Shown: in pieces, positions 9,925 to 42,945 of the stretch
How positions within the stretch are numbered: position 1 is the stretch's first letter
Layout: each line of letters starts with the position of its first letter
From: an uncultured Verrucomicrobiota bacterium
GTDB taxonomy: Bacteria; Verrucomicrobiota; Verrucomicrobiia; Limisphaerales; UBA9464
Reading direction: 5' to 3'
DNA: 64,000 nucleotides
Assembly (NCBI GenBank): GCA_964602595.1
Contig: CAZRRO010000003.1
Location: forward strand, 413,438-477,437
Translations under genes and position numbers: made by a program
The notes under the pieces: model-generated
The model's database searches: none
Told to the model about the DNA's origin: nothing
Seen by the model: only the letters and a program-made list of their open reading frames with translations

Positions 9925-12498
<2,574 letters not shown>

Positions 12499-12650
12499 TG
12501 AATCGAACCCAGGGCCGGCAAAATGGCCGCTCCTGCAGTTCCAAGCGGGAGCATGACCCAAGTCCGGACGTTTGGCACATAGTTTCGCCGCGGACCCGAT
12601 TTTGTCCGCGCTGGACGAAGGTGGGCGGACCCCGGCGCGACGAGCGAGCC

Positions 12651-13085
12651 TCAGTCGCGATTCGGACCTGGTTCGCTTGGCCGCGGGCGGCTCCGGAGGT
12701 AGTCGCCCAGCCGGGGATTCAGCCGGTCCGCCCACACGCCGTGATACCGCGGCTGCCGGATCTCCCACGCGACCAGCACAACCGTGACCGGGAGCTGGCC
12801 CAGCAGGACCGGGAGCAGCCGTAGGTCCCCGCGCGCGGCCCAGCCCGCCACGTTGAGGAGGAACAGCGCCGCCCACAGCAGTTCGAGTCGCCGGCACAGA
12901 CGGACGACGTTGCAGAACATGAAGAAGTGCCCGCCCACTAGCGGCGGCAGCCAGACCAGCTCGGGCACCGCCCGGGAAAACCACGCCGTCACGCCCGCGA
13001 GCCCCGCCAACACCCAGGCATCGGTCCGGAAGAACCGAAACCCCCAGTGGCCGGAGCGGTGGGCGGCGGTGAAGTCTGGGGTCAT
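12651..13085 (-). CDS. Small integral membrane protein, function unknown
   Basis: 144 aa with ATG at 13085. About four hydrophobic helices (WVLAGLAGVTAWF, VWLPPLVGGHFFMFCNVV, LLWAALFLLNVAGWA, LLPVLLGQLPVTVVLVAW). Same strand, lying between the ARH-fusion gene and rnr. Confidence 0.5.
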   Translation of the reverse strand: MTPDFTAAHRSGHWGFRFFRTDAWVLAGLAGVTAWFSRAVPELVWLPPLVGGHFFMFCNVVRLCRRLELLWAALFLLNVAGWAARGDLRLLPVLLGQLPVTVVLVAWEIRQPRYHGVWADRLNPRLGDYLRSRPRPSEPGPNRD

Positions 13086-13112
13086 GAACTTGGGGTGCCG
13101 TGAGGATGGGTC

Positions 13113-14489
13113 CTATCGGTCGAGATGCTGGAAAGGGATGGCCTCCCTCGCGGCCAACCATTCGGCAGGAATGCCTGCATGGCCGACCGCCAGCGCGACA
13201 ATCCCGCCGACAATGGCGCAGTTGGTGTCGATGTCGCCGGCGATGCTGGCTGTGGCCCAAAGGGCTTCGCGGTAGTCTTCGAGATGCCGGGCAGCGAGCC
13301 AGAGGCAGACCGGAACGGTGTCGGGGGCGCTGATGCGGCTGCCGTTGCCCAAGATTCGGCCGACATGGTCCGGCGAAGCGAGGAAGGGAATTCGAAGCGC
13401 GGCCGCGATGCCGCGGCGGGTTTCACCATCGGGCGTCAGGTCGTAAGCGGCTTCCAAGAGGTTCGGTGATGCCGGGGCCGGCTTCGTTTGCCTGGCGACC
13501 CATCCGGCCGCCAGTGCTACGGCCACGGCTCCGGCTTTTCCTTCGCGATGGGCGTGGGTCACTTCCGCCGACGCGATGGCTTCCGCCACCAAACGCCTTG
13601 GATCGTCCGCGAAATACGCTCCCAACGGAGCCACACGCATGGCGCCACCATTGCCCAACGAGCCCGTCCCATCGAATGCGCGGCCGGCCGCGTCGATCCA
13701 AGAGACGCCCTCGTGGATTTGACGAAGGATGCCGTGAGCGGTGCCGCCGTAACCCCGACGCGGGTCCAACATGTAGCGAGCGGCAAAGGCTTTTGCGAGG
13801 GATAGGCGCTCAATGCCGCCAAAGCGTTCCAGGGCTTCAACCACTGAAATCGCCATCACTGTGTCGTCGGTGACGAACCAGGGACTCGGCGGATCGAAGC
13901 GGCCGGCGATCCGGCTTCGGAATATGTCGTCGGGCCCGAAGAAGCATTCGCCAAACGCATCGCCCAGCGAGAGCCCCTCAAACGCCAGAGCCGCACGTTC
14001 CATCCGGGCCGCCTGGTCCGACGGAAGCCCGGCCGCAACTCCGCGCACGCCGTCCGGTTGGATCACTCGGTGTGCCGCGATCAGGGATCTGGCCTTACGC
14101 AGCCAACTGGTGGCAATCCACCCGCCGCCAAACGGCCCCACCCGCTCCCACGCCCAGCCGCCGAATCTCAGTTCGTTGATCATCGATTCCACCCGCTCGT
14201 GGTTGGAGGAATGGACGATCACCGGGCAAACCGGCTTTTGCTGCGCCAGCCAAGACGCCACTTCCAAACCGTCGCCCGGATCGCACGTCGCTCCGGGCAT
14301 TCGGTTGAGATCGTGATCCAGCGAGATCAACGAGGTGCGGTGAAGGAACGGCCCCGCCTCCGCCATGAACGCATGGGCCTCCCGCCAAAGACGCAACTCC
14401 GCCGCAGGTTCCAACTGGGCCACCGCCGCCTGAAATGCGGCGATCCGCTCGTCGTTGTCTTCGAGGATGAGGACGGCCGCTCGGTTCAT
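13113..14489 (-). CDS. Receiver-like domain fused to ADP-ribosylglycohydrolase (ARH/DraG family)
   Basis: The N-terminal ~130 aa have a flavodoxin/REC-like pattern (VLILEDND, LISLDHDL, VIVHSSN). The C-terminal ~300 aa carry ARH motifs (GLSLGDAFGE, FVTDDTVMA, GNGGAMRVAPLG, AGDIDTNCAIVGGIVA). The ATG at 14489 overlaps the kptA stop (ATGA). Confidence 0.85.
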   Translation of the reverse strand: MNRAAVLILEDNDERIAAFQAAVAQLEPAAELRLWREAHAFMAEAGPFLHRTSLISLDHDLNRMPGATCDPGDGLEVASWLAQQKPVCPVIVHSSNHERVESMINELRFGGWAWERVGPFGGGWIATSWLRKARSLIAAHRVIQPDGVRGVAAGLPSDQAARMERAALAFEGLSLGDAFGECFFGPDDIFRSRIAGRFDPPSPWFVTDDTVMAISVVEALERFGGIERLSLAKAFAARYMLDPRRGYGGTAHGILRQIHEGVSWIDAAGRAFDGTGSLGNGGAMRVAPLGAYFADDPRRLVAEAIASAEVTHAHREGKAGAVAVALAAGWVARQTKPAPASPNLLEAAYDLTPDGETRRGIAAALRIPFLASPDHVGRILGNGSRISAPDTVPVCLWLAARHLEDYREALWATASIAGDIDTNCAIVGGIVALAVGHAGIPAEWLAAREAIPFQHLDR

Positions 14490-15049
14490 GAGGAACTGGA
14501 GGTTGCGGGTGGCAACTCGATGAACTCCGGCGGCACTTGGTCGGTGAGCCAGACGTGGTTTGGCGTCAGGAAGAAGGCGTGGCCAGCGCGATGCATTTCG
14601 CCGGCCCGGATGGTCAGGAGGATCGGGCGACCTCGACGGGCACCAACCTTCAACGTCATTTCGGTTTCGGCGGAGAGGTGGACGTGATGACGCTGCATCT
14701 TGCAGAGACCCCGCTCGCGGATGGCGGGAAGGAACTGGGCGGCGGTGCCGTGGTAGAGGAGTTCAGGCGGAACCGCCGGAGCATGGTCCAACGCGACCTC
14801 GATCGAATGTCCTTGGTTAGCGCGGATGCGATGTCCGTCGGGACTGAGGGCGAAGCGCTGCTTGTCGCTCGTGCGGACGATCTCTTCGAGGTCGGTTCGG
14901 CTCAAAGCCCGCCCATGCTTGGCCAGTGCCGCGAGTAGGTCTTCCACGGCGATCCAGCCGGCGGAATCCAGGGTGATTCCAATGGTCTCAGGCTGGTGCC
15001 GCAGTACGAGGCTTAGGAACTTGCTCATGGAAACCATCTTGGATCTCAC
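14486..15049 (-). CDS. kptA: RNA 2'-phosphotransferase (Tpt1/KptA family)
   Basis: SKFLSLVLRHQPE..GI.LD..GW..V..LL, KQRFAL..DG.RIRANQGHS, LYHGT, HVHLS; length ~180 aa. The GTG at 15049 overlaps the upstream stop (GTGA). ATG alternatives are at 15037 and 15028. Confidence 0.9.
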   Translation of the reverse strand: MRSKMVSMSKFLSLVLRHQPETIGITLDSAGWIAVEDLLAALAKHGRALSRTDLEEIVRTSDKQRFALSPDGHRIRANQGHSIEVALDHAPAVPPELLYHGTAAQFLPAIRERGLCKMQRHHVHLSAETEMTLKVGARRGRPILLTIRAGEMHRAGHAFFLTPNHVWLTDQVPPEFIELPPATSSSS

Positions 15050-15402
15050 GCCATGCCCCCTGTGAATTCGCGGACGACTTCGATCTCGCCGACAATGTTC
15101 GCGTTGAACTCGGTCAGTTCCTCAGCGGGAACCCAGAGTTCCTGATGCACGCGGCTGCCGACGGTCTCCACCTTGAACTTGGAGAGGTAGTCGGAGCGAA
15201 CGGCGAAGCGGGTCACGTAGCCGGCTCCGGAATCCTTCACATTCCAGTCGCGGGCGATCTGGGCGGCGTATTCCTCGTTGAGCACCGGGTAGAAGATCGG
15301 TTGCTCCGGTAGGCGCGGCGGAAACGCTTTCATGCCGCTGGCGCGGATGAGCGCGAGTTCATTTGGGCCAACAGGGCGGTAAAGCGTGGTGGTCAGATTC
15401 AT
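15046..15402 (-). CDS. Conserved-looking 118-aa protein of unknown function embedded in the ADP-ribose operon
   Basis: MNLTTTLYRPVGPNELALIRASGMKAFPPRLPEQPIFYPVLNEEYAAQIARDWN... I do not recognise a named family. It has 4-nt overlaps with both neighbours (ATGA at 15399-15402, GTGA at 15046-15049) and good GC3 codon usage. Confidence 0.7.
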   Translation of the reverse strand: MNLTTTLYRPVGPNELALIRASGMKAFPPRLPEQPIFYPVLNEEYAAQIARDWNVKDSGAGYVTRFAVRSDYLSKFKVETVGSRVHQELWVPAEELTEFNANIVGEIEVVREFTGGMA

Positions 15403-15845
15403 GCCGTCTCCCTCCTTAGTTCATCCCGGATCGCCATGAGGATGAGCCCCAGCTTGTTCTTGCCGGTGCCATCGCCGCCGTCGCCCCAATAGCGGTCATT
15501 GCGGGTGTGCTCGATCAAATGGACTTCACCGGTGGAGAGGAGCAAGTCACGGAGCCGTGGATGTTGGGTGAACTTCGCTCGCACGGCCTCGGTCATGATG
15601 GCGTCCTTGACCGACTCCCAATCCCGGCGGAGCGGCTTCTTCCGGTCGCGACCGGCCCGTGCGGCGATCATGGGCGAATTGAGCAGGCGGATGCTTTCCT
15701 CGTGTTCCGTGCCCGGGAATTTCTGAGCCTGGAAATAGTGCTCTGCGGTCGGCCAGGTCCGGCCCTTCAACACGATGGGAAACGCGGCGAAATTCGAGAA
15801 CTCACCGTAGGGCTCTTCAACTCGGTAAAAGCGGATGGTGTTCAT
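15399..15845 (-). CDS. NADAR (YbiA/DUF1768) domain protein
   Basis: FYRVEEPYGEFSNF....I.L.G..WPTAEHYFQAQKF ... NDRYWGDGGDGTGKNKLG..LM..R; 148 aa. ATGA overlaps at both ends. Confidence 0.85.
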   Translation of the reverse strand: MNTIRFYRVEEPYGEFSNFAAFPIVLKGRTWPTAEHYFQAQKFPGTEHEESIRLLNSPMIAARAGRDRKKPLRRDWESVKDAIMTEAVRAKFTQHPRLRDLLLSTGEVHLIEHTRNDRYWGDGGDGTGKNKLGLILMAIRDELRRETA

Positions 15846-16678
15846 TGTCCGATTTGATTCAGGCGGGTGTTGAAAGCTTTCAGGACTGCCGAATTTGGCG
15901 ACTTGTCGAAGATGGCAAAGACCACCTTGGTGAAAGCAGTGGCAAAGGAGCCGTTGCCGAGCAGCAGACGAGCAAAGGCGTCGGCGACGAGGGAGGGATC
16001 ATTCCGGAACACTCCGCAACCCCACGCGCCAAGGATCAAGGTGTCCACCTGCTTGGCGACGGCGAGCTGCAGCACGAACTCGGCGCGCCGTCGGAGGGTT
16101 TCGGGCACGAGCGGCAGTTTGGCTGGTTCGTTGTTGGCCAAAGCCCCTGCATTGGGCGCCGGCGAAGTGATGACCGAGGCGATGGCGGGTTCATCCAACA
16201 GCTCACCGTTGTCATCCACGAAGAACGGGACGCCCGGCGAAAAGATGGCCGTGTGCTGATAGAGCAGGCAGCGGCTATTTCGATGACGTTCGTAGAACTG
16301 GGGCTGGCGTAGCAGACATGGATACAGTCCGGACGACCGCGCTAGGGACTCTTCCTGCGCTTGGGCTCCACCGAGAAAGCCGCCGCCGGGATTCTTGGCG
16401 GAGGCAAAGTTCAAGGCGGCGAGGTGTCCGCTCCCGACGCGATGCAATCGGACGATGGCTTCGACCGTGGACTCCGTTGTGACTTCAATCCCGGTCGATC
16501 CGCCGACGCGGACGAGTGTGGAACCGGACATCGGAGTTTCGTGGAAAGTGGTTCCGGCAAGAGCGGGCTGCATCATTGAATTCAGATCAACGGTTGCGCC
16601 GGTCCGGGTCTGGTAGTTTCCGCGCTCCAACAGTTCGAGTGTCTGCTCGGCGAGGCGGATGCGATGGTTTCGGTTCAT
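15842..16678 (-). CDS. Microbial-type poly(ADP-ribose) glycohydrolase-like macro-fold protein (TIGR02452/DUF2263-like)
   Basis: ALNFASAKNPGGGFLGGAQAQEESLARSS contains the PARG signature GGG-X7-QEE. It also has SPGVPFF and LILGAWGCGVF; 278 aa. Confidence 0.8.
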   Translation of the reverse strand: MNRNHRIRLAEQTLELLERGNYQTRTGATVDLNSMMQPALAGTTFHETPMSGSTLVRVGGSTGIEVTTESTVEAIVRLHRVGSGHLAALNFASAKNPGGGFLGGAQAQEESLARSSGLYPCLLRQPQFYERHRNSRCLLYQHTAIFSPGVPFFVDDNGELLDEPAIASVITSPAPNAGALANNEPAKLPLVPETLRRRAEFVLQLAVAKQVDTLILGAWGCGVFRNDPSLVADAFARLLLGNGSFATAFTKVVFAIFDKSPNSAVLKAFNTRLNQIGQ

Positions 16679-16693: not shown

Positions 16694-17383
16694 TTACAGC
16701 CAGAAGCTGAAGCCGCGTTTGCGGAGCTGCTGGTATTTGCGTTCGTCGAAGCGGTGGAGGCGGGCGGCGCGGTGGGCCACGTCTTGCTGGATCTCGCCGG
16801 TGTCCACCAGCAGGCCCATGCCGAGGATCTTTTTCCGGAAGTTGCGTTTATCGAGGCGCTCTTCGAGCACGACTTCGTAGAGGTGCTGGAGCTGGCCGAG
16901 GGTGAACTTGGCCGGCAGCAGCTCGAAGCCGATGGGTTCGTAGCGGACCTTGCCGCGCAGCCGGGCCAGTGCGGTGGCGAGGATGTGTTCGTGGTCGAAG
17001 GCAAGGTCGGGGGCGTCGTCCACGCTGAACCACGCGGCCTGTCGGGCGTCCGTGGCGGCCTGGGGCCTGTGGTCGGCCAGCGAGACGAGCGCGTAGTAGG
17101 CGACGCTGACGACGCGTTCGCGCGGGTCGCGGTCGGGCGCGCCGAAGGTGTAGAGCTGCTCCAGGAAGATGTCCTTCAAGCCGGTTTCCTCGGCGAGTTC
17201 GCGGCGGGCGGCGTCCTCCAGCGATTCCTCCACGCGGACGAAGCCGCCGGGGAGCGCCCATTTGCCCTCGAACGGCTTCAGGTCGCGCTGAATGAGCAGC
17301 ACCTTGAGGTCTCCCTCGTCGAAGCCGAAGACGACGCAGTCCACCGTGAGGGCGGCCCGGGGATATTCGTAGGTGTGTGGCAT
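16694..17383 (-). CDS. nrtR: Nudix hydrolase fused to C-terminal winged-helix domain (NrtR-type ADP-ribose-responsive regulator)
   Basis: Complete Nudix box [26 protein letters not shown]-terminal ~80 aa follows ([33 protein letters not shown]), as in NrtR wHTH domains. It is the first gene of the operon. Confidence 0.85.
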
Positions 17384-17393
17384 GGTTTTGTTC

Positions 17394-17421
17394 GGACACG
17401 TTGTTAGTGTCCATGCGACAC
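17394..17421 (-). promoter_or_regulatory. Candidate operator: interlocked inverted repeats GGACAC-N7-GTGTCC-N4-GACAC upstream of nrtR
   Basis: 17394-17399 ggacac / 17407-17412 gtgtcc (perfect, 7-nt spacer), and gtgtc 17407-17411 / gacac 17417-17421. It starts 10 nt upstream of the nrtR ATG, in the nrtR / zinc-ribbon divergent region. Confidence 0.35.
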
Positions 17422-17763
17422 GAAGTCAAGGCCGGCCTGCCCCAAGCCCATTGACAGTCCGGGCGGCGGGAGAGATGTGTCGAGGGTCTGTTGCAGCCTA
17501 AGCCGACCCGCCTTCCTGCGGATCGGCGCGGGGGAACCAAGTTCCTCAATGCGAATTGAGGGTGGGGCGCACGGCACCGGGTAACCGGGGCCAAGGTCAC
17601 TTCCAAGACCGAGCCCGTCAGCTAACTCCGTCGGCAGCTGGAAGGGCGATCCTCTGGGTCCGCAAGTTGCGGCGCCCACGTTCACCCCGTCTGAAACCGC
17701 GCGGCGGCCTCGTGCCGACGCGCACCGATGCGTCGCGCTCACCCGCGGCGCATCCCTGAAGTC

Positions 17764-32184: not shown

Positions 32185-32442
32185 GACCTTTGTAACACGC
32201 CAACTTGCCGGGCGGACCGGTGTGGCCACCTGTCGCCTCCGCTGGCCGAAAGGTTTCTGGCGAAGCGGACCGGCGAAATATGCCGCGGCACTTTTCCCCG
32301 GCAAGCGGATTCGCCGGACCGGAGGATTGGGGCCTTTGCCAGGGTCTCCGACCGTGCCGTTTCCCACGGCGTCCGCCCCCGGAAGGGGCCGCAATTTGGT
32401 TAGCGAACGGCGTGGGATGTGCTCACTTTGCCACCGCTCACC

Positions 32443-35400
32443 ATGAAGAACTGTCTTCTCCTCCCGGGTGTTTCACGCCGTCTCACCCGCTTGGTCGTCC
32501 TGCTGGCCGTGGCGATCCTGCTGCCGGTGCTAGCGCCCGCGTTCGGCGGGTCCATCCTGCGGGAAGTGTTCTCCGGCATCGGCGGTAGCAGCCTTGCGGA
32601 CCTGACCAATTCGCCGGCGTTCCCCAATTCGCCGACCTCGACCAATTTCGTGACGGACTTCTTTGAGGCGCCGACCGACGTCGAGGAAGGCTACGGGCAA
32701 CGCATGCACGGCTACATCGTGCCGCCCACGACGGGGAGCTACACCTTCTGGATATCGTCCGACGACGAGGGCGCCCTTTACCTGAGCACGGATGAAAACC
32801 CAATCCGCTCCCGGCTGATTGCCAACGTGCCCGGCTGGACCGGCCCCCGCCAGTGGGGCAACTACGCCGAACAACAGTCCGCGCCAATAACCTTGCAGGC
32901 CGGCAAGGCGTATTACGTTGCGGCCCTGATGAAGGAGGGCGGCGGCGGCGACAACCTGGCGGTGCGCTGGCTCCGGCCGGGCGGGATCGATGAGGGACCC
33001 ATCCCCGCAACCTACCTTTTGCCCTGGGGCACTGCCTTCACGGTGCCCTCGATCACCCAGCAGCCCACCAACACGACCGTCGTCGAAGGGCAGTTGGCGA
33101 CCTTCGTGATCAAGGTCTCGAACCTCGACGCGGTGACATTCCTCTGGAAACGGAACGGGACCGCCCTGCCGGCCTCCACCTCCGGTGTCCTTGAATACGG
33201 CCCGGTGACGCTGGATGACCAGGGCGCGCAGTTTGGGGCGACGGTGACCAATCGCATCGGAGCCACCAATTCGACGCTGGCAACGCTTACGGTGCTGCCA
33301 GACACCACCAAACCCACGGTCGTTTCCGCCATCAGCCTCGGGGCCGACCGCATCCGGTTGCAGTTCAGCGAACCGATGGACGCCGCCTCGGCCAGCGTGA
33401 CCGGAAACTTCCGGGTCAATGGTGGGGTCAACGTGACCGGCGCGGTCCTAGATTCCGACCCCAGCGCGGTCCTGCTGACTGTGGCAGGGATGAACTTCGC
33501 GCAGAACTACACCGTCACTATCAGCAACGTGCGCGACCGCGCGCGCACGTCGAACACCATCGTGGCCGACAGCACGGTCAGTTTCCTCGCGCTGGAACTC
33601 ACCGCCCAGAACATCGGCGGGGGCACCGGTGGCATCCAGCGGATTGGGCCGGGCGCCTTTGACCTGACGGGGCAGGGGAGGGGCGTCAGCGGCGGTAATG
33701 ACCAATTCCAGCTGTCGTGGGAACGCCGCACCGGCGACTTCGATCTTCAGGTGCGGGTGACTGACCTCGGGATTTCCAGCGCCTTCCTCCGGGCGGGTCT
33801 CATGGTGCGGCCGACCTTGGACACTAACAGCGCCTTTGCTGCGGTGTTCGGTTCATCTGCGCAGTTGGGCGTCTTCTTCGAGTCGCGTGCCACCGCTGGC
33901 GCCAATCCCAGCCAACAGACGGTCGTCGGTGGTTATCCGGCCAACTATCCCTACCAGTGGTTGCGGCTCCGGCGCGCGGGCAATGTCTTCACCGGCTTCG
34001 GCAGCCGCGACGGCGTGGGCTGGACCCAGTTGGGTTCGGCGACCATCGCTTTGCCGGCCCAGACCTTCGTGGGACTCGCCGTTGCCAGCCAGAACGCGGC
34101 CGTCGCCAGCACGGTGAAGTTCCGCGAATACAGCCCGACCGCCAGCACCGCGGTGGCGACCTTCGCCAATGACCGGGAGTCGCCCACGCCGTCGTCGCGC
34201 CGGACCGGCTTGACCCTCTCGGAGATCATGTATCGCCCGAAGACAGTCGCCGGGGACACCAATAACCTCGAGTTCGTCGAACTGTTTAATGCGGGCGCGA
34301 TCTTTCAGGAAATGACCGGTTGGAAGCTGACCGGCGGCATCGAATACACCTTTCCGGCGGGATTCCGGATCGAGGCGGGCCAATATATCGTGGTCGCCGC
34401 GGACCCGGCGGCGCTGCAGGCGGCTCGCGGCTTGTCCGGCGTGCTCGGGCCGTTCTCCGGCTCGCTCAATAACGCCGGGGACGTCGTTCGGCTTCGCGAC
34501 AACATCGGCGCGATCAAGCTCGAGGTTGAATACTCGCCCGACGCGCCGTGGCCGGTTGCGGCCGACGGCGCGGGGGCATCCTTGGTCCTTACGTCGCCGA
34601 GCTACGGAGAAGCGAGCCCCCAAGCCTGGACGGCCAGCAGCCTGAACGGCGGCTCTCCCGGAGGGCCCGATCCGGTCATCAACACCCCGGGTGACACTGT
34701 GGTCATCAATGAGTTCCTCGCCCACACCGACGACCCCCAGCTCGACTTCATCGAGCTGTTCAACCGGTCAAACACGCCGGCCGACCTGTCCGGCTGCTAC
34801 CTGACCGATGATCCCGCGACCAACAAGTTCCGTCTGCCCGACGGCACCACGCTGGCCGCGCGCGGTTTCCTCGCCTTCGACCAGAATCAGTTGGGTTTCC
34901 GCCTCGGGGCCGACGGCGAGGCGATCTATCTCGTCAGCTCCAACGGCCTGCGCGTCCTCGACGCTATCCGCTTCGGCGGCCAGGAAAACGGCGTCGCTTC
35001 CGGACGCCTGCCCAACGGCTCCGCCACCATACGCCGGCTCGCGGCGCCCACTCCCGGTGCCGCCAACGGCGAGGCTTTCGGTGAGGCGGTCGTGCTGAAC
35101 GAGATCATGTATAATCCGATTTCGGGCCTCGACGACGACGAGTATGTGGAGCTGCACAATCGTGGGGCCGTCGCCGTCAGCCTCGCCGGCTGGCGTTTTG
35201 AATCGGGCATCGACTTCCGGTTCCCCGCGGGCGCCAGCCTCGCCCCCGGCGGCTACGTCGTGGTGGCCCGCAGCGCGGCCCGGCTGCTGACCAACTATCC
35301 GCAACTGAACGCCGCCAACACGTTTGGCAACTTCGCCGGCTCGCTGCGGAATAGCGGTGAACGGATCGCCCTCTCCAAGCCTGACGACATCATTTCAACC

Positions 35401-38400
35401 AACGAACTGGGCAACCGGGTGACCAACGTCATCCACATCGTGGTCGCGGACGTGACCTTTTCGACCGGCGGGGCGTGGGGCCGCTGGTCCGATGGCGGCG
35501 GCTCCAGCCTGGAGCTGACCGACGCGGACGCCGATCCGCTGCGGGCGGCCAACTGGGCGGATTCCGACGAAACCCAGAAAGCCCAGTGGAGCGAAGTCAG
35601 CTTCACCGGCCGGCTCGACAACGGCGACGGCGGGCAAACTGCGGACCGCCTCTTCCTCGGCCTGCTCAATGACGGCGAATGTCTCGTCGACAACGTTGAA
35701 GTGGTGCAGGGCGCCGGGGCCAATTTGGTCAGTAACCCCGGCTTCGAGACCGGTGCCACCGGCTGGAGCTTTTTCGGCAACCACGTGCTAACCGGCGTCG
35801 ATTCCGCCGGCGCCTTTGCCGGCACGCGTTGCCTGCATGTCCGTGCCGGCGGCGGCCTCGACACCGGTCCGAACTCGATCCGCACCGCCCTCAGTTCCGC
35901 CGTCGCCAACAACTCGACCGCCACCTTCCGGGCGCGAGTGCGGTGGTTGCGCGGCTGGCCGGAACTGCTGTTCCGGCTCAAGGGCAATTACCTGGACTTC
36001 GCCGCCGCGCTGCCCGTGCCCGCCAACCTGGGCACGCCCGGCCAGGCCAACAGCCGCGCCGTGGCCAACGCCGGTCCGGCGATCTATGACGTCACCCACA
36101 CCCCGGCCGTTCCACGCAACAACGAGGCGGTGCTGGTCACCGCCCGGGTCGCCGATCCGGACGGCATCACGACACTGAACCTGCGCCTGCGTCTGGACCC
36201 GGCAACGTCCCTGACCACGACGGCCATGCGCGACGATGGCACCGCCGGCGACGTTTTGGCCGGCGACGGCATCTACACGGCCCGGATCACCGGGCGTTCC
36301 GCGGGGACGCTGGCGGCGTTCCGGATCGAAGCCGCAGATGGGTTGGGCGCAACCGCCGTGTTCCCCGCCCGGGCGCCGACGGAGGAGGCGCTGATCCGCT
36401 GGGGCGATGAAATTCCGTTCGGCACCTTCCCGCACGCCCACCTCTGGTCCACCCAGGCCAACCAAGGACCGGCCGACGGCAACGGGCTGAACAATTTCTC
36501 GCGGCCCTGCACCATCGTTTACGGCAACCGCCGCGTGATCTACGGCGCCGTCTTTCGCGACAAGGGCAGCCCGTTCCACGGCGGCCGCGGTGACCTGACC
36601 GCTGTGACGCCGGACGACGACCTGCTGCACGGCGTGGGCGAGCGCCTGTTCTCCCAGACCGGCAACGGCGGCAGCGAGGACACCGGACTGCGTGGCCGGC
36701 TGGCCTATTGGCTGGGACAGCAACTGGAGATCCCCGCGCTGAATGGCAATCCGCTGCACTTCTTCTTCAACGGCGGCCGTTACGCGAACATCGTCGAGGA
36801 CTTGGAGGAGCCGGATCATCGTTACGCCGAGCAGCATTATCCCGACGGCGGCGCAGGTGATCTCTACAAGATCTCAATCTGGTTTGAGTTCGACGACGGC
36901 AATGGCGGCTTCAATGCGATTCAGTCCACGCTCGAACGATTCCTGACGACCGGCAGCCAGTTGAAGCTGGCCCGCTACCGTTGGAACTGGGAGCGGCGCG
37001 CCCAGCAGGTCCCAGAAAGTGACTACACGACCATCTTCGACCTGGTGAACGCGGCCAACAACACCGCCACCGGCGACGCCTATGTGCAGCGGATGCTGGC
37101 CCATGGCGACGTGGACGAATGGATGCGGGTCTTCGCCTATAACCGGATCATGGGGAACTGGGATTCGTGGACGTTCAACGTCGGCCAGAACATGTATCTG
37201 TATCGCCAGCCCGGCCGGCCGGCCGTGATCATGCCGTGGGATCTCGACTTCATCTTCGGCCTCGGGGATGGCGCCTCCAGCGGCCTCTGGGGCGGGCAGG
37301 ATCCCATCGCCAATTCCAAGCTCTACGACAATCCGGCGCTCCGCCGTTTCCTCTGGCAGGCCTACATCGACGCGGTCAACGGCCCCATGCTGCCGGGCCG
37401 TTTCCAGCCGGTGATCGACGCCCTGCGGGCGGCCCAGTTGGCCAACAACATCCAGGGCCTGAACAGCACCGCGGGCATCACGACCTACATCAATGCCCGG
37501 CGCGCCAACATCCTCGGGCAGATCAATGCGGCCAATGTCGCCGCGCTGGCCATCACCTCGAACGGCGGCAACAACTTCACCTCCGCAACTGCCAACGCGA
37601 CCATCACCGGCAACGCTCCGTTGGCCGTCGCGAGCATCGCCGTCAATGGCGTCCGCTACCCCGTGGTCTGGACGGGCTTCACCACCTTCAGCGTTACGGT
37701 CCCCCTCACGCAGCAGGTCAATTCGCTCGTGCTGGTCGGGCTCGACCGGAAGGGTAATCCGCTCCCCGGGGTGACGGATTCCGTTACCGTCACCTACAAC
37801 GGCGCGGTGCCGCAGCCGCAGGACTTCGTGGTGCTCAACGAGGTCCACTACAACCCCGCGGTCCCGCAGACCTCCTTCATCGAGCTGCACAACCGCAATG
37901 CGACCACGCCGTTTGACCTCTCGGGCTTCGTCCTGGAAGGCGTCGGCTACACGTTCCCGGCCGGTTCCATCATCGCGCCCAACGGTTACCTGCTGCTCGT
38001 CGGTGACCGGGCGGCGTTCGCCGCCGCCTTCGGGGCCGGCGTGGTGGTGTTCGACCAGTTCAGCGGTCGTCTCGACAATGACGGCGAAACCCTCCGCCTC
38101 GTGCGGCCCGGGGCGACGCCGGAACTCGACCAACGGATCACCGACGTCCGTTACCTCGACCACGCGCCGTGGCCTGTCGAACCGGATGGCGGAGGCTCGT
38201 CCCTCCAGCTCATCGATCCGGCCCAGGACACCTGGCGGGTGGCCAACTGGGGCGCCATGCCGACGAATGCCGCCAATCGCTTCACGCCCGGCGCGGCCAA
38301 CGCGAACCGCGCCACCTTGGCCGCGTTCCCGGCTGTGTGGCTGAACGAGGTGCTGCCCAACAGCGTGGACGGCGGCCTAGACAACGCCGGCGACCGCGAG

Positions 38401-41400
38401 CCCTTCGTTGAGCTCTACAACTCGGGCCCGACCGCGGTCGATCTCTCGGCGTTTTTCCTGACCGACACCTATGGCAACCTGACCAAGTGGCCGTTCCCCG
38501 CCGGAACGACAATTGCCGCGGGCGGTTTCCTGACCGTGTGGGCCGACGGGGAGACGGCGGAATCCACCGTCGCCGCGCCGCATGCCAACTTCCGGCTGAA
38601 TCCGACCAACGGCTCCGTCGCCCTCGTGCGGTTGCAGGGTGCGGCCAACGCGCCCGCCGTGCTGGACTTTGCGGACTACGCGAACCAGTTCCCCAACCGC
38701 AGCGTCGGCCTGATTCCCGACGGCGACGTGCGCAGCCGGCGGCAGGTCTATTTCCCGACCGCCGGCGCGTCCAACAATCCCGCCGTGCCGTCCGTCAACG
38801 TCGTAATCAACGAGTTCATGGCGCAGAACACGGCCACCCTCACCGATCCCGCGGACGGCGACTTCGACGACTGGATTGAACTCCACAATGCCGGTTCCAC
38901 GACGGTGGACCTTACCGGCTTCTTCCTGACGGATAGCCTGACCAACAAGACCATGTTCGCGATCCCGGCGGGTTATCCGATCCCGGCCGGCGGTTTCCTG
39001 CTGGTCTGGGCCGACGGTGAGACCGGACAGAATCGCGCCACGAACGTCCACCTCCACGCGAGTTTCTCGCTCGCTCGTGCCGGGGAGCAGATCGGCCTCT
39101 ATTCACCGACCGGCCAACTGATTGACGGCCTGACGTTTGGCAACCAGACGAACAACGTCTCGCTTGGCCGATATCCGGACGCGTCGGAGAATCCGTTGGT
39201 CTTCTTCGAGGAACCGAGCCCGGGTTCGGCCAACTTCATCCCCGGCGGCAATCTCCCGCCGGTCGTCACGCCGTTGGCGGACCGAAGCGCGCCGGAAGGC
39301 GTCCTGTTCAGCCTGACCGTCGCCGCCAGCGACCCGGACGCGGGACAGACGCTCAAGTTCAGCCTGGGCGCCGATGCGCCGACGGGGGCCGCGATCAATG
39401 AATCCACCGGCCTGCTGACTTGGACGCCGACCGAAGCCCAAGGGCCTGGCAACTACCTGTTCACCGTCCGCGCCACCGACAACGGCACGCCGCCTCGCAC
39501 CGGCGTGGGCCGCCTCAACCTCACCGTGACCGAGGCCAACCTTGCGCCGGTGATCGGTGTCTTGGCCGACCAGGCGGTGGATGAGGGCGCCCAGTTGGCA
39601 TTCACGCTGCCGGCGACCGATCCCGACCTGCCGGCCAACAAACTGGCCTACGCGCTGGAGCCGGGTTCACCGGTTGGTGCCACCATCGACCCGGCGACCG
39701 GCGAGTTCGCGTGGACTCCGACCGAGGACCAGGGTCCGCGGGTGTTCGACGTGACCTTCCGCGTCACCGACAACGGTTCGCCGGCGCAGAGCGTGACCAA
39801 GACCATCAAGGTGACGGTGAACGAGGTGAACAATCCGCCGCTGCTCACCCAACCGGCCCCGCAGTCGGTGGACGAAGGGGCGACCCTCTCGCTGACGCTG
39901 GCCGGCGCCGACCCCGAGGGGGCTCCGGTGCGCTACAGCCTGTCGGGCAACATCCCGGCCGGGCTCGCGCTCGACGAAACCACCGGCCTGCTGACGTGGA
40001 CTCCGACCGAGGCGCAGGGACCGGGCAGCTATCCGCTGGTGGTCAAGGTGACGGAGCAGACGGCCCAGCAATTGTCCTCCCAGCGCACCTTCTCCATCAC
40101 CGTCAACGAGGCCAACCAGGCCCCTATGCTGCAAGCCCTCGGCGACTTCACGGTCAGCGAGGGCAACCGGGTCGCCTTCGTCGCCACTGCCACGGACGCC
40201 GACCTGCCGGCCCAGACGCTGACCTACGCGCTGGTTGGCGACGTTCCCACCGGCGCCACGATCGACGCCAACACGGGGGCCTTTGCCTGGACCACCGACG
40301 ACGATGCCGGCGTGGCGACCAACGTCATCAGCGTGCGCGTCTCGGACAACGGGCCCGGCAATCGGTCCGACACGAAGACGTTTACCGTCCTTATCCGGCC
40401 CCGCTTCAAGGTCGCGATCAACGAGATCATGTATCGGCCGCTGACCAACAACGCGGAATACATCGAGATCGCCAACGCCTCGGCCCGGACGCCTTGGGAC
40501 ATCTCCGGTTATCGCCTCGAAGGCGACGAACTCGCCTTTACCTTCCCGGCGAACACCGTGCTCGCCCCCGGCCAGCATCTCTGCGTGGTGCGGAACCTCG
40601 CGGTGTTCCGGGCGACCTACGGGGCCGCACTGCCGGTGGCCGGCGTGTGGACCGGCATCCTTGGGAACACCGGCGACCGGCTCCAACTGTTCCCCGGGGA
40701 TCCCGTAGCTAACCCGGTCGCGCAGGTGCAGTTCCGCGCCACGTTGCCATGGCCGACCGCTGCGGCGGCGGGCGCCGCGCTCCAGTTGGTCGACGGCCGC
40801 CGGGACAACTTCCGCGTGGGCAACTGGGCGGCGGCCCCGGCCTACAACGGCCCGCGCCGGCTCGCGGTCCTGACCAACCAGTGGCGTTATTTCCAGGCGG
40901 GCGCCCCGGATCCGGCGTGGAAGGAGAACACGTTCAACGACGGCGCGTGGTCGGTCGGCCGTGGCCTGTTCTACGTCGAGACGGCCGAGCTGCCGGCGCC
41001 AAAGACGACCCCGCTGACCTTGGGACAGTCGGGTTACTACTTCCGCACCAAGTTCACCCTGCCGTTTGTGCCTGCCGGGGCGACGCTCCAGCTGAACTAT
41101 GTCGTCGACGACGGCGCGGTGTTCTATCTCAACGGCCGCGAGCTCCATCGGTTCGGCTTCGATGCGGGGGTGGTCGTGCAGCATGACACGCCCTGCACGC
41201 TGGTGGCCGACGCCGTTCTGACCGGACCGATCACTTTGCCGGCGGAACTGCTTCAGGCCGGGGAAAACGTCCTCGCCGTCGAGGCCCATCAGGCCAACGT
41301 GGGCAGCTCCGACATCGTCTTTGGCGCCAGCCTCACCCTGGAAGGCGGCTCGGTTCCGGGCCAAACGCCGGGCGCAACCAACAATGTCGGCGCCAGCCTG

Positions 41401-42945
41401 GCCGCCTATCCGGCGCTCTACCTGAACGAGATCCTGCCCAACAACACCGCTGGCCTTGCGGACAGCAAAGGTGAGCGCGAGCCCTGGGTGGAACTGCACA
41501 ACGCCGGACCGGACGCGGCGGACCTCTCCGGCTGGGGCCTGACCGACAGCTACACCAGCCTCGCCAAGTGGACGTTCCCGGCCGGCACAGTTCTCGGGGC
41601 CGACCAGTTCCTCGTGATCTTCCTCGACGGGGAGACCGGCGATGCGACCGCAAACGAACTGCACGCCAGCTTCCGTGTCCCCGCCGCGAATGGCTCCGTG
41701 GCGCTTGTCCGGCCGCAGGGCGCCGCGCTGGCGGTCGTGGATTACGTGGACTACGCCACGGTGGCGGCCAACGCCTCGTTGGCCTCGCTGCCCGACGGCC
41801 AGCCGTTTGACCGCGAAATCACCACCTCTCCCACCCCGGGTGCCTACAACAATGGCACCCCGCCGAATCGCCCGCCGGTGCTCGTGCCGATAGCGGCGCA
41901 AGGCGGACCGGAAGGCGTCGAACTGACCTTCACCGCGACGGCCAATGATCCGGACGCAGGCCAGGCGCTGTCCTTCTCGCTGGAAGGCGTGGTGCCGACC
42001 GGCGCGACGTTGACCGCCGCGGGCTTGTTTACCTGGACTCCGACCGAGGTGCAGGGACCCGGCAGCTATCCGGTCACCGTGGTGGTCACGGACAACGGCA
42101 GCCCGGCGCTGAGCGCGCGGCAGACGGTGCAATTCACCATCACCGAAACCAACGCCGCCCCGATCTTGGGAGTTACCGCGGACAAGGTATTGGCCGAAGG
42201 CCAGCCGTTGAATGCCCGGTTCACCGCGACGGATTCCGACCTCCCGGTCAATACGATGACGTATGCCCTCGTGACCGCGCCGGACGGCATGACCATCAAT
42301 CCGGTGACGGGCGAAGTGAAGTGGACCCCGGGCGAAGCCCAGGGACCGGCCGCCTACACGATCACCGCGCGGGTCACCGACAACGGCTCACCGGCCGCAA
42401 GTGTCGACCGTTCGTTTGAGCTGACGGTCACGGAGGCGAACGTCGCCCCCACCCTCGCCGGTCCGGCCTCGGCGACCATTCCGCCGCTCCAGCCATGGGT
42501 AGGCCAGTTCACTGGAGCCGACTTGGACCTACCGGCGAACGTCCTGACCTACGTCCTGGTGAACTCGCCCGGCGGCATGACCATCAATGCGGCGACCGGC
42601 GAGGTAAAGTGGACGCCGCAGGCAATCCAGAGCCCCGGCACCTATCCCATTACGGTGCGGGTCTCCGACGGGGCAACCCCGCCGGGCACCGCGGAACACA
42701 GCCTGACGCTGACGGTCGCCGACCTTTCGTCGGCTCCTACCCCGGCTCCGGAGGTCCGCGCCGATGGCACAGTCGTGCTCCGCTGGAACACGGTGGTGGG
42801 CGTGACCTATCGCGTCGAGGTGGCGGACGGTCCTGCCGGTCCGTGGCAACCGCTTGCGACCGTGGTGGGTGACGGTCAGCCCAAGTCCGTCACCGATAAT
42901 CCCGGCGTCCGGACTGAACGCTACTACCGCAACATAATTCCCTGA
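32443..42945 (+). CDS. Giant secreted multidomain protein: PA14, Ig-like, jelly-roll domains, 8 lamin-tail domains (LTD), CotH kinase-like domain, 7 cadherin-like (He_PIG-type) repeats, shared C-terminal domain
   Basis: ORF from GTG 32419; the ATG at 32443 gives signal MKNCLLLPGVSRRLTRLVVLLAVAILLPVLAPAFG. PA14: GYI.PP.TG.YTFWISSDDEGALYLS...AGKAYYV.ALMKEGGGGDNL.V.W. LTD cores such as V.NE[IF]MY.P....EF[VI]EL.N occur 8 times. CotH: NRIMGNWDSWTFNVGQNMYLYR..G....MPWDLDFIFG. It ends RTERYYRNIIP. Confidence 0.85.
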   Translation: MKNCLLLPGVSRRLTRLVVLLAVAILLPVLAPAFGGSILREVFSGIGGSSLADLTNSPAFPNSPTSTNFVTDFFEAPTDVEEGYGQRMHGYIVPPTTGSYTFWISSDDEGALYLSTDENPIRSRLIANVPGWTGPRQWGNYAEQQSAPITLQAGKAYYVAALMKEGGGGDNLAVRWLRPGGIDEGPIPATYLLPWGTAFTVPSITQQPTNTTVVEGQLATFVIKVSNLDAVTFLWKRNGTALPASTSGVLEYGPVTLDDQGAQFGATVTNRIGATNSTLATLTVLPDTTKPTVVSAISLGADRIRLQFSEPMDAASASVTGNFRVNGGVNVTGAVLDSDPSAVLLTVAGMNFAQNYTVTISNVRDRARTSNTIVADSTVSFLALELTAQNIGGGTGGIQRIGPGAFDLTGQGRGVSGGNDQFQLSWERRTGDFDLQVRVTDLGISSAFLRAGLMVRPTLDTNSAFAAVFGSSAQLGVFFESRATAGANPSQQTVVGGYPANYPYQWLRLRRAGNVFTGFGSRDGVGWTQLGSATIALPAQTFVGLAVASQNAAVASTVKFREYSPTASTAVATFANDRESPTPSSRRTGLTLSEIMYRPKTVAGDTNNLEFVELFNAGAIFQEMTGWKLTGGIEYTFPAGFRIEAGQYIVVAADPAALQAARGLSGVLGPFSGSLNNAGDVVRLRDNIGAIKLEVEYSPDAPWPVAADGAGASLVLTSPSYGEASPQAWTASSLNGGSPGGPDPVINTPGDTVVINEFLAHTDDPQLDFIELFNRSNTPADLSGCYLTDDPATNKFRLPDGTTLAARGFLAFDQNQLGFRLGADGEAIYLVSSNGLRVLDAIRFGGQENGVASGRLPNGSATIRRLAAPTPGAANGEAFGEAVVLNEIMYNPISGLDDDEYVELHNRGAVAVSLAGWRFESGIDFRFPAGASLAPGGYVVVARSAARLLTNYPQLNAANTFGNFAGSLRNSGERIALSKPDDIISTNELGNRVTNVIHIVVADVTFSTGGAWGRWSDGGGSSLELTDADADPLRAANWADSDETQKAQWSEVSFTGRLDNGDGGQTADRLFLGLLNDGECLVDNVEVVQGAGANLVSNPGFETGATGWSFFGNHVLTGVDSAGAFAGTRCLHVRAGGGLDTGPNSIRTALSSAVANNSTATFRARVRWLRGWPELLFRLKGNYLDFAAALPVPANLGTPGQANSRAVANAGPAIYDVTHTPAVPRNNEAVLVTARVADPDGITTLNLRLRLDPATSLTTTAMRDDGTAGDVLAGDGIYTARITGRSAGTLAAFRIEAADGLGATAVFPARAPTEEALIRWGDEIPFGTFPHAHLWSTQANQGPADGNGLNNFSRPCTIVYGNRRVIYGAVFRDKGSPFHGGRGDLTAVTPDDDLLHGVGERLFSQTGNGGSEDTGLRGRLAYWLGQQLEIPALNGNPLHFFFNGGRYANIVEDLEEPDHRYAEQHYPDGGAGDLYKISIWFEFDDGNGGFNAIQSTLERFLTTGSQLKLARYRWNWERRAQQVPESDYTTIFDLVNAANNTATGDAYVQRMLAHGDVDEWMRVFAYNRIMGNWDSWTFNVGQNMYLYRQPGRPAVIMPWDLDFIFGLGDGASSGLWGGQDPIANSKLYDNPALRRFLWQAYIDAVNGPMLPGRFQPVIDALRAAQLANNIQGLNSTAGITTYINARRANILGQINAANVAALAITSNGGNNFTSATANATITGNAPLAVASIAVNGVRYPVVWTGFTTFSVTVPLTQQVNSLVLVGLDRKGNPLPGVTDSVTVTYNGAVPQPQDFVVLNEVHYNPAVPQTSFIELHNRNATTPFDLSGFVLEGVGYTFPAGSIIAPNGYLLLVGDRAAFAAAFGAGVVVFDQFSGRLDNDGETLRLVRPGATPELDQRITDVRYLDHAPWPVEPDGGGSSLQLIDPAQDTWRVANWGAMPTNAANRFTPGAANANRATLAAFPAVWLNEVLPNSVDGGLDNAGDREPFVELYNSGPTAVDLSAFFLTDTYGNLTKWPFPAGTTIAAGGFLTVWADGETAESTVAAPHANFRLNPTNGSVALVRLQGAANAPAVLDFADYANQFPNRSVGLIPDGDVRSRRQVYFPTAGASNNPAVPSVNVVINEFMAQNTATLTDPADGDFDDWIELHNAGSTTVDLTGFFLTDSLTNKTMFAIPAGYPIPAGGFLLVWADGETGQNRATNVHLHASFSLARAGEQIGLYSPTGQLIDGLTFGNQTNNVSLGRYPDASENPLVFFEEPSPGSANFIPGGNLPPVVTPLADRSAPEGVLFSLTVAASDPDAGQTLKFSLGADAPTGAAINESTGLLTWTPTEAQGPGNYLFTVRATDNGTPPRTGVGRLNLTVTEANLAPVIGVLADQAVDEGAQLAFTLPATDPDLPANKLAYALEPGSPVGATIDPATGEFAWTPTEDQGPRVFDVTFRVTDNGSPAQSVTKTIKVTVNEVNNPPLLTQPAPQSVDEGATLSLTLAGADPEGAPVRYSLSGNIPAGLALDETTGLLTWTPTEAQGPGSYPLVVKVTEQTAQQLSSQRTFSITVNEANQAPMLQALGDFTVSEGNRVAFVATATDADLPAQTLTYALVGDVPTGATIDANTGAFAWTTDDDAGVATNVISVRVSDNGPGNRSDTKTFTVLIRPRFKVAINEIMYRPLTNNAEYIEIANASARTPWDISGYRLEGDELAFTFPANTVLAPGQHLCVVRNLAVFRATYGAALPVAGVWTGILGNTGDRLQLFPGDPVANPVAQVQFRATLPWPTAAAAGAALQLVDGRRDNFRVGNWAAAPAYNGPRRLAVLTNQWRYFQAGAPDPAWKENTFNDGAWSVGRGLFYVETAELPAPKTTPLTLGQSGYYFRTKFTLPFVPAGATLQLNYVVDDGAVFYLNGRELHRFGFDAGVVVQHDTPCTLVADAVLTGPITLPAELLQAGENVLAVEAHQANVGSSDIVFGASLTLEGGSVPGQTPGATNNVGASLAAYPALYLNEILPNNTAGLADSKGEREPWVELHNAGPDAADLSGWGLTDSYTSLAKWTFPAGTVLGADQFLVIFLDGETGDATANELHASFRVPAANGSVALVRPQGAALAVVDYVDYATVAANASLASLPDGQPFDREITTSPTPGAYNNGTPPNRPPVLVPIAAQGGPEGVELTFTATANDPDAGQALSFSLEGVVPTGATLTAAGLFTWTPTEVQGPGSYPVTVVVTDNGSPALSARQTVQFTITETNAAPILGVTADKVLAEGQPLNARFTATDSDLPVNTMTYALVTAPDGMTINPVTGEVKWTPGEAQGPAAYTITARVTDNGSPAASVDRSFELTVTEANVAPTLAGPASATIPPLQPWVGQFTGADLDLPANVLTYVLVNSPGGMTINAATGEVKWTPQAIQSPGTYPITVRVSDGATPPGTAEHSLTLTVADLSSAPTPAPEVRADGTVVLRWNTVVGVTYRVEVADGPAGPWQPLATVVGDGQPKSVTDNPGVRTERYYRNIIP
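39250..40401 (+). repeat. Four tandem ~96-codon cadherin-like/He_PIG-type coding repeats
   Basis: N.[AP]P.........EG..L.F...A.D.D...L.Y.L....P.GA.ID..TG...WTPTE.QGP......V.V.DNG.P.......T..V.E. 1152 nt = 4 x 96 codons, in frame with the giant ORF. Confidence 0.8.
41866..42723 (+). repeat. Three further tandem ~95-codon cadherin-like/He_PIG-type coding repeats
   Basis: Same consensus as 39250-40401 (NRPPVLVPI..., NAAPILGVT..., NVAPTLAGP...). 858 nt. Confidence 0.8.

Follow-up and report, generated by a model that had tools for sequence, protein, structure and literature searches.

What does a receiver-like domain do when it is joined to an ADP-ribosylhydrolase and encoded directly behind an RNA 2′-phosphotransferase? 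This question is raised by an open reading frame (ORF) of 458 amino acids (aa) in a 64,000-nucleotide stretch of DNA from an uncultured Verrucomicrobiota bacterium of the Limisphaerales (contig CAZRRO010000003.1, positions 413,438 to 477,437), hereafter the window. A first reading, made from the letters alone (the sequence-only reading), had proposed a receiver-like domain fused to an ADP-ribosylglycohydrolase at 13113-14489, and the ORF list and Pfam domains confirm this arrangement. The ORF, which we call cREC-ARH after its two domains, divides as follows.

13113..14489, minus strand: whole cREC-ARH fusion ORF, 458 aa from ATG to stop (ORF list, Pfam domains, second assembly).
14061..14489, minus strand: cREC domain, residues 1-143 (PF20274, AlphaFold2 (beta-alpha)5 model, Foldseek, alignment conservation).
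13995..14060, minus strand: inter-domain linker, residues 144-165 (gapped and unconserved in an alignment of 32 fusion proteins).
13116..13994, minus strand: ARH3-like ADP-ribosylhydrolase domain, residues 166-458 (PF03747, ARH3 matches in the Protein Data Bank (PDB), motifs).

The cREC-ARH fusion is a real two-domain cytoplasmic protein. An identical 458-aa product, encoded with the same five upstream genes, is present on an independently assembled Logan contig, and none of the 32 aligned fusion ORFs carries an in-frame stop in the linker. To place the gene among its relatives, we scanned one genome per species, which yielded 102 relatives and 80 retained loci; neighbors were counted within ~8 kb of the cREC gene, and gene calls in GC-rich loci were filtered by GC content at the third codon position. 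Across these 80 fetched loci, an uninterrupted cREC+ARH ORF, typically ~445-470 aa, recurs in 31 other species-representative loci. An assembly or frameshift artefact joining two genes, which the sequence-only reading had kept in mind, might be suspected from the many database matches that are short or cover cREC only, from the frameshifts that split the fusion in two loci (L002 and L062), and from a further locus (L001) in which ARH and cREC are separate genes. In L001, however, the closest stand-alone cREC homolog (69% identity) follows the separate ARH gene behind nrtR, an order from which simple read-through could not yield a cREC-then-ARH protein. Read-through is therefore excluded as the origin of the fusion, and the unfused genes standing side by side indicate that the pairing is conserved even without fusion. 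Given the second assembly and the 31 uninterrupted fusion ORFs with both domains, we consider an artefact ruled out, its residual chance being negligible.

We next consider the family to which the N-terminal domain belongs. It matches PF20274 cREC_REC ("Cyclic-phosphate processing Receiver domain") at 34.8 bits against a Pfam cut-off of 27 (E 2.6e-8), with protein residues 50-107 aligned to model positions 31-86 of 88. Structure prediction and a Foldseek search, which the sequence-only reading had proposed for residues 1-130, returned a receiver fold. The AlphaFold2 model, covering residues 1-147 and built on 44 homologs, has a predicted local distance difference test score (pLDDT) of 95.3 and a predicted template-modelling score (pTM) of 0.90, and shows a (beta-alpha)5 arrangement: b1 5-9, a1 13-26, b2 31-35, a2 38-51, b3 52-58, a3 74-82, b4 90-93, a4 97-109, b5 114-117 and a5 124-143. 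Searched against the PDB with Foldseek, it matches almost only response-regulator receivers (E ~1e-6, template-modelling (TM) score 0.58-0.68); among viral models, its top match is a phage protein named cREC (E 2.3e-6, TM 0.63/0.73). No solved cREC structure came up when PDB sequences were searched with a profile; the only match was the marginal response regulator 4mld (E 0.87). The domain is not a 2H phosphoesterase of the Cpd1/LigT kind, as its fold is receiver-like and it has no 2H Pfam match. Receiver-like "cyclic-phosphate processing" domains were known to the sequence-only reading as a computational proposal, and it is with these that the N-terminal domain groups, through both the PF20274 threshold and the phage structural match. 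We conclude that it is a member of the cREC family, a receiver fold no longer engaged in His-Asp phosphorelay.

Beyond the score itself, the domain shares with PF20274 a receiver-like fold, conserved aspartates, links to KptA, Nudix, ARH, Macro and RNA-repair genes, and the fact that it has never been seen with a histidine kinase. Published accounts describe cREC as mostly a phage or prophage domain and stress its Nudix fusions (PMC7824862, PMC9503650). The window gene differs in belonging to a large cellular clade, mostly labelled Verrucomicrobiota and Planctomycetota, in lying within a chromosomal operon under apparent NrtR control, and in being fused to ARH.

Could the domain nonetheless be a working receiver? 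We placed the receiver residues by model position, by local profile alignment to CheY and by hidden Markov model alignment to 4mld; an hhalign comparison of one CheY sequence with the family alignment gave a 23-column local match that is not significant alone and that served to place S94 and G74. The five classical positions read as follows.

E10, D11: acidic pair after b1, kept.
D58: phospho-acceptor aspartate at the end of b3, kept.
S94: position of CheY Thr87 at the end of b4, kept.
G118: position of the receiver lysine at the end of b5; variable (G/V/S/A/Y in 44 aligned homologs), lysine absent.
P119: proline after the lysine position, invariant among 44 close homologs.

Four of the five positions are kept and only the lysine is missing. 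The sequence-only reading had noted acidic residues at the canonical sites and had looked in vain for the lysine; both points are borne out by the model and alignments. The three motifs that it cited fall at residues 7-13 (LILEDND), 56-61 (SLDHDL) and 93-95 (HSS). Its view that HSS replaces the T/S position needs correcting: Ser94 aligns to CheY Thr87, so the T/S residue is kept and His93 is an additional one.

An ordinary two-component response regulator, with its kinase encoded elsewhere, would have this receiver fold and would explain the weak match to PF00072 Response_reg (16.9 bits). That match, however, is below the Pfam cut-off of 30.2, the conserved lysine is missing, and the D-H-D and H-x-x-N signature described below is foreign to receivers. 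Nor is there a partner in sight: no histidine-kinase domain was found in 20 flanking large ORFs of the window (a 3508-aa ORF at 32419-42945 (+) and RNase R were left unscanned), as the sequence-only reading had remarked of the nearby genes, and no kinase family is among the most frequent families encoded beside the fusion in related loci. That reading would have yielded to a domain with every receiver catalytic residue and a cognate kinase; the lysine is absent and the scanned ORFs hold no kinase, and its argument against classical phosphorelay stands. We therefore reject a classical response regulator as very improbable.

The domain is set apart from CheY-like receivers by more than a lost lysine. 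Both have the (beta-alpha)5 fold and the E10/D11, D58, S94 and P119 positions, but in the window cREC the beta3-alpha3 loop is longer (a ~6-residue insertion relative to PDB 4mld) and carries D70-P-G-x-G74, no lysine precedes the proline, there is no kinase partner, and H59, D60, H93 and N96 are extra invariant residues. Residues that are invariant or nearly so in the 44 close homologs are E10, D11 and R15; S56-L-D58-H59-D60-L61; D70-P-G-x-G74; C88-P-V-x-x-H93-[ST]-[ST]-N96; and P119-x-G121-x-x-W124. They are concentrated in the loops that follow the beta strands, and the helices vary. Distant cREC homologs (23-27% identity) appeared on six low-GC viral contigs in a pattern scan of IMG/VR, and a tblastn search of GenBank phages with the N-terminal domain gave no match at E <= 0.01. 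Invariant in the aligned cellular and viral cREC sequences alike are L9, D11, I55, L57, D58, H59, D60, L61, G74, L81, V90, H93, N96 and R116. His93 is invariant across the family, whose signature can be written D-H-D / H-x-x-N and whose signature residues are common to stand-alone and fused forms. In the model, D11, D58, H59, D60, H93 and N96 lie at or just past the C-terminal ends of the strands, and G74 opens helix 3. Residues conserved in this way would be expected where a catalytic or ligand site occupies the C-terminal edge of the sheet, and here the site is richer in His, Asp and Asn than that of a receiver. One 478-aa protein from our representative search (P0130) is a tandem cREC-cREC whose second copy, with SLDYNL for SLDHDL, may be degenerate.

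The position of D58-x-D60 at the end of a central strand in a Rossmann-like sheet recalls the nucleophile and general acid of the DxD motif in HAD phosphatases, and a common active-site geometry in receivers and HAD enzymes is a long-standing observation. HAD enzymes nevertheless have another strand order and motif set, and cREC lacks the HAD motif III lysine; the likeness is one of mechanism and not of membership.

A domain with these residues might also be a switch. In this alternative, cREC would be a sensor or regulatory domain that binds a phosphorylated ADP-ribose derivative, or whose D58 is transiently phosphorylated by a small donor, and that thereby switches ARH. The retained acidic pair, aspartate and Ser/Thr position on a receiver fold would suit such a role, as would the placement of cREC N-terminal to an effector enzyme, an arrangement found in many response regulators; one stand-alone cREC (in L064) is encoded near the gene for a phosphate acetyltransferase, which makes acetyl-phosphate. 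Yet the greater part of the family consists of stand-alone ~140-aa proteins, which have no attached domain to regulate in cis, and cREC is also found C-terminal to ARH or NUDIX. There is no lysine to stabilize a phosphorylated aspartate, and the phage members, which have no C-terminal helix of the Planctomycetota-Verrucomicrobiota-Chlamydiota (PVC) type, differ in the alpha4-beta5-alpha5 output face; the extra invariant His, Asp and Asn look like catalytic or metal ligands rather than parts of a switch. We regard a sensor role as unlikely.

What of the second domain? Residues 171-443 match PF03747 ADP_ribosyl_GH at 183.8 bits against a cut-off of 26.2 (E 7e-54), and the best PDB sequence matches of the domain are ARH3 enzymes (E 3e-18). 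The ARH motifs read G176-D-A-F-G-E181, T207-D-D-T, G276-S-L-G-N-G-G-A-M-R and G418-D-I-D-T-N. T207-D-D-T and G418-D-I-D-T-N align to the TDDT and GDTDT di-metal motifs of ARH3, and at least 90% of the 32 aligned fusion proteins retain them. Like enzymes of the ARH3/ADPRHL2 type, the fused domain has intact TDDT, GSxGNGGAMR and GDxDT motifs, and it is an ARH3-like, di-metal ADP-ribosylhydrolase.

The fused domain differs from ARH3 in the placement of one glutamate. In ARH3, the Glu-flap residue E41 lies seven residues past the aspartate of the GD motif (D+7) and is described as crucial for activity (PMC7050489). The window protein has F184 at this position and a glutamate, E181, four residues past D177 (D+4; motif at 13947-13964, minus strand). 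A D+4 glutamate is present in 28/32 fused ARHs and a D+7 glutamate in none; 29 of the 32 have S, A, F, G or C at D+7, and the other three lack the searched motif. By contrast, 29/30 unfused ARH paralogs encoded at the same loci have the canonical D+7 glutamate (GDALGxPxE). This relocation in fused as opposed to unfused ARHs marks the cREC-fused ARH as a distinct clade.

Having assigned both domains, we asked in what company they occur. Nearly all of the 80 loci are labelled Verrucomicrobiota (many of them Limisphaerales) or Planctomycetota. The fusion is encoded in 31 of them, mostly labelled Verrucomicrobiota, and a stand-alone cREC (~140 aa) in 45, mostly labelled Planctomycetota. The neighbors of the two forms were counted as follows.

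KptA: 18/31 fusion loci (10 adjacent, same strand), 1/45 stand-alone loci.
NrtR: 17/31 fusion loci, 0/45 stand-alone loci.
Further ARH paralog: 19/31 fusion loci, 0/45 stand-alone loci.
PARG: 4/31 fusion loci, 0/45 stand-alone loci.
NADAR: 5/31 fusion loci, 0/45 stand-alone loci.
118-aa protein: 5/31 fusion loci, 0/45 stand-alone loci.
144-aa protein: 7/31 fusion loci, 0/45 stand-alone loci.

A Pfam count over two genes on each side of the fusion also returned Macro, isochorismatase, Band_7, RlaP, PP2C, Pnkp and Hen1. The operon-like neighbors of stand-alone cREC are miscellaneous; examples are a CCA-adding enzyme, encoded at three loci, and ribosomal protein S21, encoded at four. No NAD or ADP-ribose neighbors were found at stand-alone loci (e.g. 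L027, L029, L034 and L036). In L064, a 404-aa cREC protein is encoded two genes downstream of the phosphate acetyltransferase gene, with a single gene between it and a YjgF/RidA-like gene. The closest genomic relative of the window locus (L004, JBIIUN010000023.1; 91% identity over the N-terminal domain) has the same order of KptA, fusion and 144-aa genes; it is filed as 'Candidatus Kapaibacterium', the next closest relatives are all Verrucomicrobiota, and the contig may be mis-binned.

The survey of domain partners that the sequence-only reading had recommended points to enzymes such as ARH and NUDIX. With E <= 1e-3, an exhaustive profile search gave 1569 cREC representatives at 50% identity, the majority with a single domain. 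The multi-domain members among those scanned include ARH-cREC, NUDIX-cREC, Clp_N-cREC-ARH, DUF7674-cREC, cREC with a tRNA_anti-like oligonucleotide/oligosaccharide-binding (OB) fold, tandem cREC-cREC and cREC-DUF4272. That the fusion partners are enzymes, in either order, fits consecutive steps of a pathway.

In the window itself, the fusion is the last enzyme gene of an operon transcribed from the minus strand in the order nrtR, PARG, NADAR, 118-aa protein, kptA and cREC-ARH. The other genes and the candidate operator are listed here.

17407..17421, minus strand: candidate NrtR operator GTGTCGCATGGACAC (GTGT-N7-ACAC), between a -35 element TTGACT (17424-17429) and a -10 element TAACAA (17401-17406).
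16694..17383, minus strand: nrtR, Nudix-related ADP-ribose-responsive repressor, first gene of the operon (NUDIX and NrtR_WHD).
15842..16678, minus strand: bacterial-type PARG (macrodomain) hydrolase (PF10021, E 3e-46; TIGR02452, 296.9 bits).
15399..15845, minus strand: YbiA-type NADAR hydrolase (PF08719, E 3e-39; TIGR02464).
15046..15402, minus strand: 118-aa protein of no catalogued family with a predicted minimal ADP-ribosyltransferase (ART) fold (AlphaFold2 and Foldseek).
14486..15049, minus strand: KptA/Tpt1 RNA 2′-phosphotransferase (PF01885, E 7e-50; NF002014, 261.9 bits against a cut-off of 239).
12651..13085, minus strand: 144-aa hydrophobic protein of no catalogued family (no Pfam match), 27 nt downstream of the fusion.

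Consecutive genes from PARG through cREC-ARH overlap by 4 nt at all four junctions, and nrtR and PARG are separated by 15 nt. At the last of these junctions, the ATG of the fusion overlaps the kptA stop codon (ATGA) within TCATGAACCGA. The candidate operator, a palindrome, matches the published NrtR core GT-N7-AC, and ADP-ribose is the ligand that releases NrtR from DNA (PMC2330246). A tAGTGT-N7-ACACTa element also lies upstream of nrtR in seven related loci (L001, L005, L006, L011, L012, L014 and L024). In the window, a second, weaker GTGT element follows the candidate operator, and a clear second site is present in L011, L012 and L014. The operon is chromosomal and apparently regulated by ADP-ribose, and KptA is translationally coupled to cREC-ARH within it.

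Several further features of this region deserve mention. A prophage origin was rejected on the strength of the flanking genes, which code for RNase R, NADH dehydrogenase chain 3, enolase and FGAR amidotransferase. GC content at the third codon position is 0.71-0.78 from PARG through cREC-ARH (13113-16678) and 0.82-0.90 in nrtR, RNase R, an FG-GAP protein and an SPFH protein; the lower values could reflect horizontal acquisition or different expression. The mechanically called RNase R ORF (9925-13260, minus strand, TTG start, 1111 aa) extends upstream across the 144-aa gene and into the 3′ end of the fusion; RNase R must in truth begin far downstream of this TTG. A homolog of the 144-aa protein is present in the seven fusion loci counted above and is encoded directly upstream of KptA in four loci (L009, L010, L011 and L019).

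The 118-aa protein has no Pfam or NCBIfam match and at least 8000 homologs; identity is ~70-90% among the 120 matches listed, and 36 residues are invariant among 36 aligned sequences. Its AlphaFold2 model (pLDDT 91.6) resembles the Tpt1 C-terminal domain, the RhsP2 toxin (TM 0.61) and DUF952 in Foldseek. The order of NADAR followed by a small ART mirrors the YbiA-YarT toxin-antitoxin pair (PMC11125620; YarT 114 aa). Such strong conservation would be odd for a toxin.

How, then, might the two domains work together? The best explanation, which we hold with about even confidence, is that the fusion dismantles the by-product of KptA in two steps to ADP-ribose and phosphate, and that the operon is self-inducing. 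In this scheme, cREC-ARH would dispose of Appr>p, the cyclic-phosphate derivative of ADP-ribose released by the adjacent KptA. The cREC domain would break the P-O bond through a putative Asp/His site made up of D11, D58-H59-D60, H93 and N96 at the C-terminal strand ends, and the ARH domain would break the C1''-O bond. The order is free: cREC could open the cyclic phosphodiester to ADP-ribose 1''-phosphate (ADPR-1''-P), from which ARH would free the phosphate, or, equally possibly, ARH could open C1'' to give ADP-ribose 2''-phosphate (ADPR-2''-P), which cREC would then dephosphorylate. Either way, the net products would be ADP-ribose and phosphate, and the ADP-ribose would keep NrtR off its operator for as long as substrate flows. 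A narrower form of this proposal, which we advance tentatively and at less than even confidence, is that the fusion is a self-contained converter of Appr>p to ADP-ribose, consisting of a receiver-fold enzyme without lysine and an ARH variant specialized for the 1''-O-phosphate, in which the catalytic glutamate has moved by one helical turn.

The proposed chemistry has a familiar counterpart. In yeast, Appr>p is handled after Tpt1 by the 2H cyclic phosphodiesterase Cpd1 and the macrodomain phosphatase Poa1. The proposed steps are the same and follow the same KptA/Tpt1 family: a cyclic phosphate is opened, phosphate is removed and ADP-ribose is freed. The yeast enzymes, however, have 2H and macro folds where the window protein has receiver-like and ARH domains in one polypeptide, and the analogy we draw is a functional one only. 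For the ARH step, there is chemical precedent in ARH3-type cleavage of phosphate-linked ADP-ribose: both ARH3 and a Streptomyces enzyme resembling it take ADP-ribose off phosphate groups, products of a KptA-type enzyme among them; NADARs do not, and bacterial PARG shows the highest activity on such ends (PMC11833690). For cREC, a role in cyclic-phosphate processing was predicted by Iyer, Aravind and colleagues in 2021 (PMC7824862) and 2022 (PMC9503650). The sequence-only reading had favored an atypical receiver handling a small phosphorylated ligand derived from KptA; classification and context, with KptA in more than half of the fusion loci, support this, and the function itself is a prediction.

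Several observations weigh against this two-step scheme. The cREC domains "remain experimentally uncharacterized" (PMC9503650), and our full-text literature search found no other paper on the domain and no experimental work; no cREC assay was found in the literature searched and no structure is solved, and catalysis as opposed to binding is a prediction. The putative site geometry was derived from the secondary structure of the model and from alignment. The fused ARH clade has its glutamate at D+4 and lacks the canonical D+7 residue that is crucial in ARH3, and its activity or specificity may therefore differ from that of ARH3. The PARG-type macrodomain of the operon could handle ADPR-1''-P, in which case the ARH step may be redundant or aimed at another substrate. 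No KptA is encoded within ~8 kb in 13/31 fusion loci; together with the stand-alone cREC genes that lack an NAD or ADP-ribose context, these loci indicate that Appr>p cannot be the only substrate of the family. Finally, no natural source of RNA 2′-phosphate for bacterial KptA is known (PMC7050489).

A further alternative takes RNA itself as the substrate. Here cREC would open RNA 2′,3′-cyclic phosphates to 2′-phosphates for KptA, and ARH would strip ADP-ribose from nucleic-acid phosphate ends, the ADP-ribose having been attached to RNA or DNA ends by KptA or foreign ART toxins; the substrate would not be free Appr>p. The published prediction allows for RNA ends besides Appr>p (PMC9503650), and ARH3-like and PARG enzymes clear phosphate-end ADP-ribose of the KptA type (PMC11833690). 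RNA-repair genes (RlaP, Pnkp/Hen1 or RtcB) are present in some fusion loci, a CCA-adding enzyme adjoins some stand-alone cREC genes, one cREC is fused to the tRNA_anti-like OB fold, and RNase R lies just downstream in the window. The RNA-repair genes, however, occur in a minority of loci; across the loci, KptA, NrtR, ARH, Macro and nicotinamidase-type neighbors dominate and point to small-molecule NAD and ADP-ribose metabolism; NrtR responds to free ADP-ribose (PMC2330246), and Pfam recognizes no nucleic-acid-binding domain in the 458-aa protein. We think an RNA-end enzyme improbable, and return to the conversion of Appr>p as the best explanation.

The N-terminal domain belongs to a family that is already in Pfam and was described computationally in 2021-2022, and the locus is not a new kind of system. 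To this family, our analysis adds a large chromosomal cREC clade in Verrucomicrobiota and Planctomycetota, counts for the conserved linkage of cREC-ARH with KptA and NrtR, a family-wide D-H-D / H-x-x-N signature without the receiver lysine, and the relocated glutamate of the cREC-fused ARH clade. Bacterial KptA/Tpt1 has been a long-standing puzzle, being a conserved enzyme whose RNA 2′-phosphate substrate has no known bacterial source, and the locus offers a compact and clean experimental entry to both the function of cREC and the role of bacterial KptA. What stands to be gained is a first activity for the cREC family and a clearer view of by-product handling in NAD-dependent RNA repair, rather than a new principle. 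If the fusion does convert Appr>p to ADP-ribose, the receiver fold would gain a hydrolytic activity outside signaling, and bacterial KptA would gain a defined, ADP-ribose-inducible pathway.

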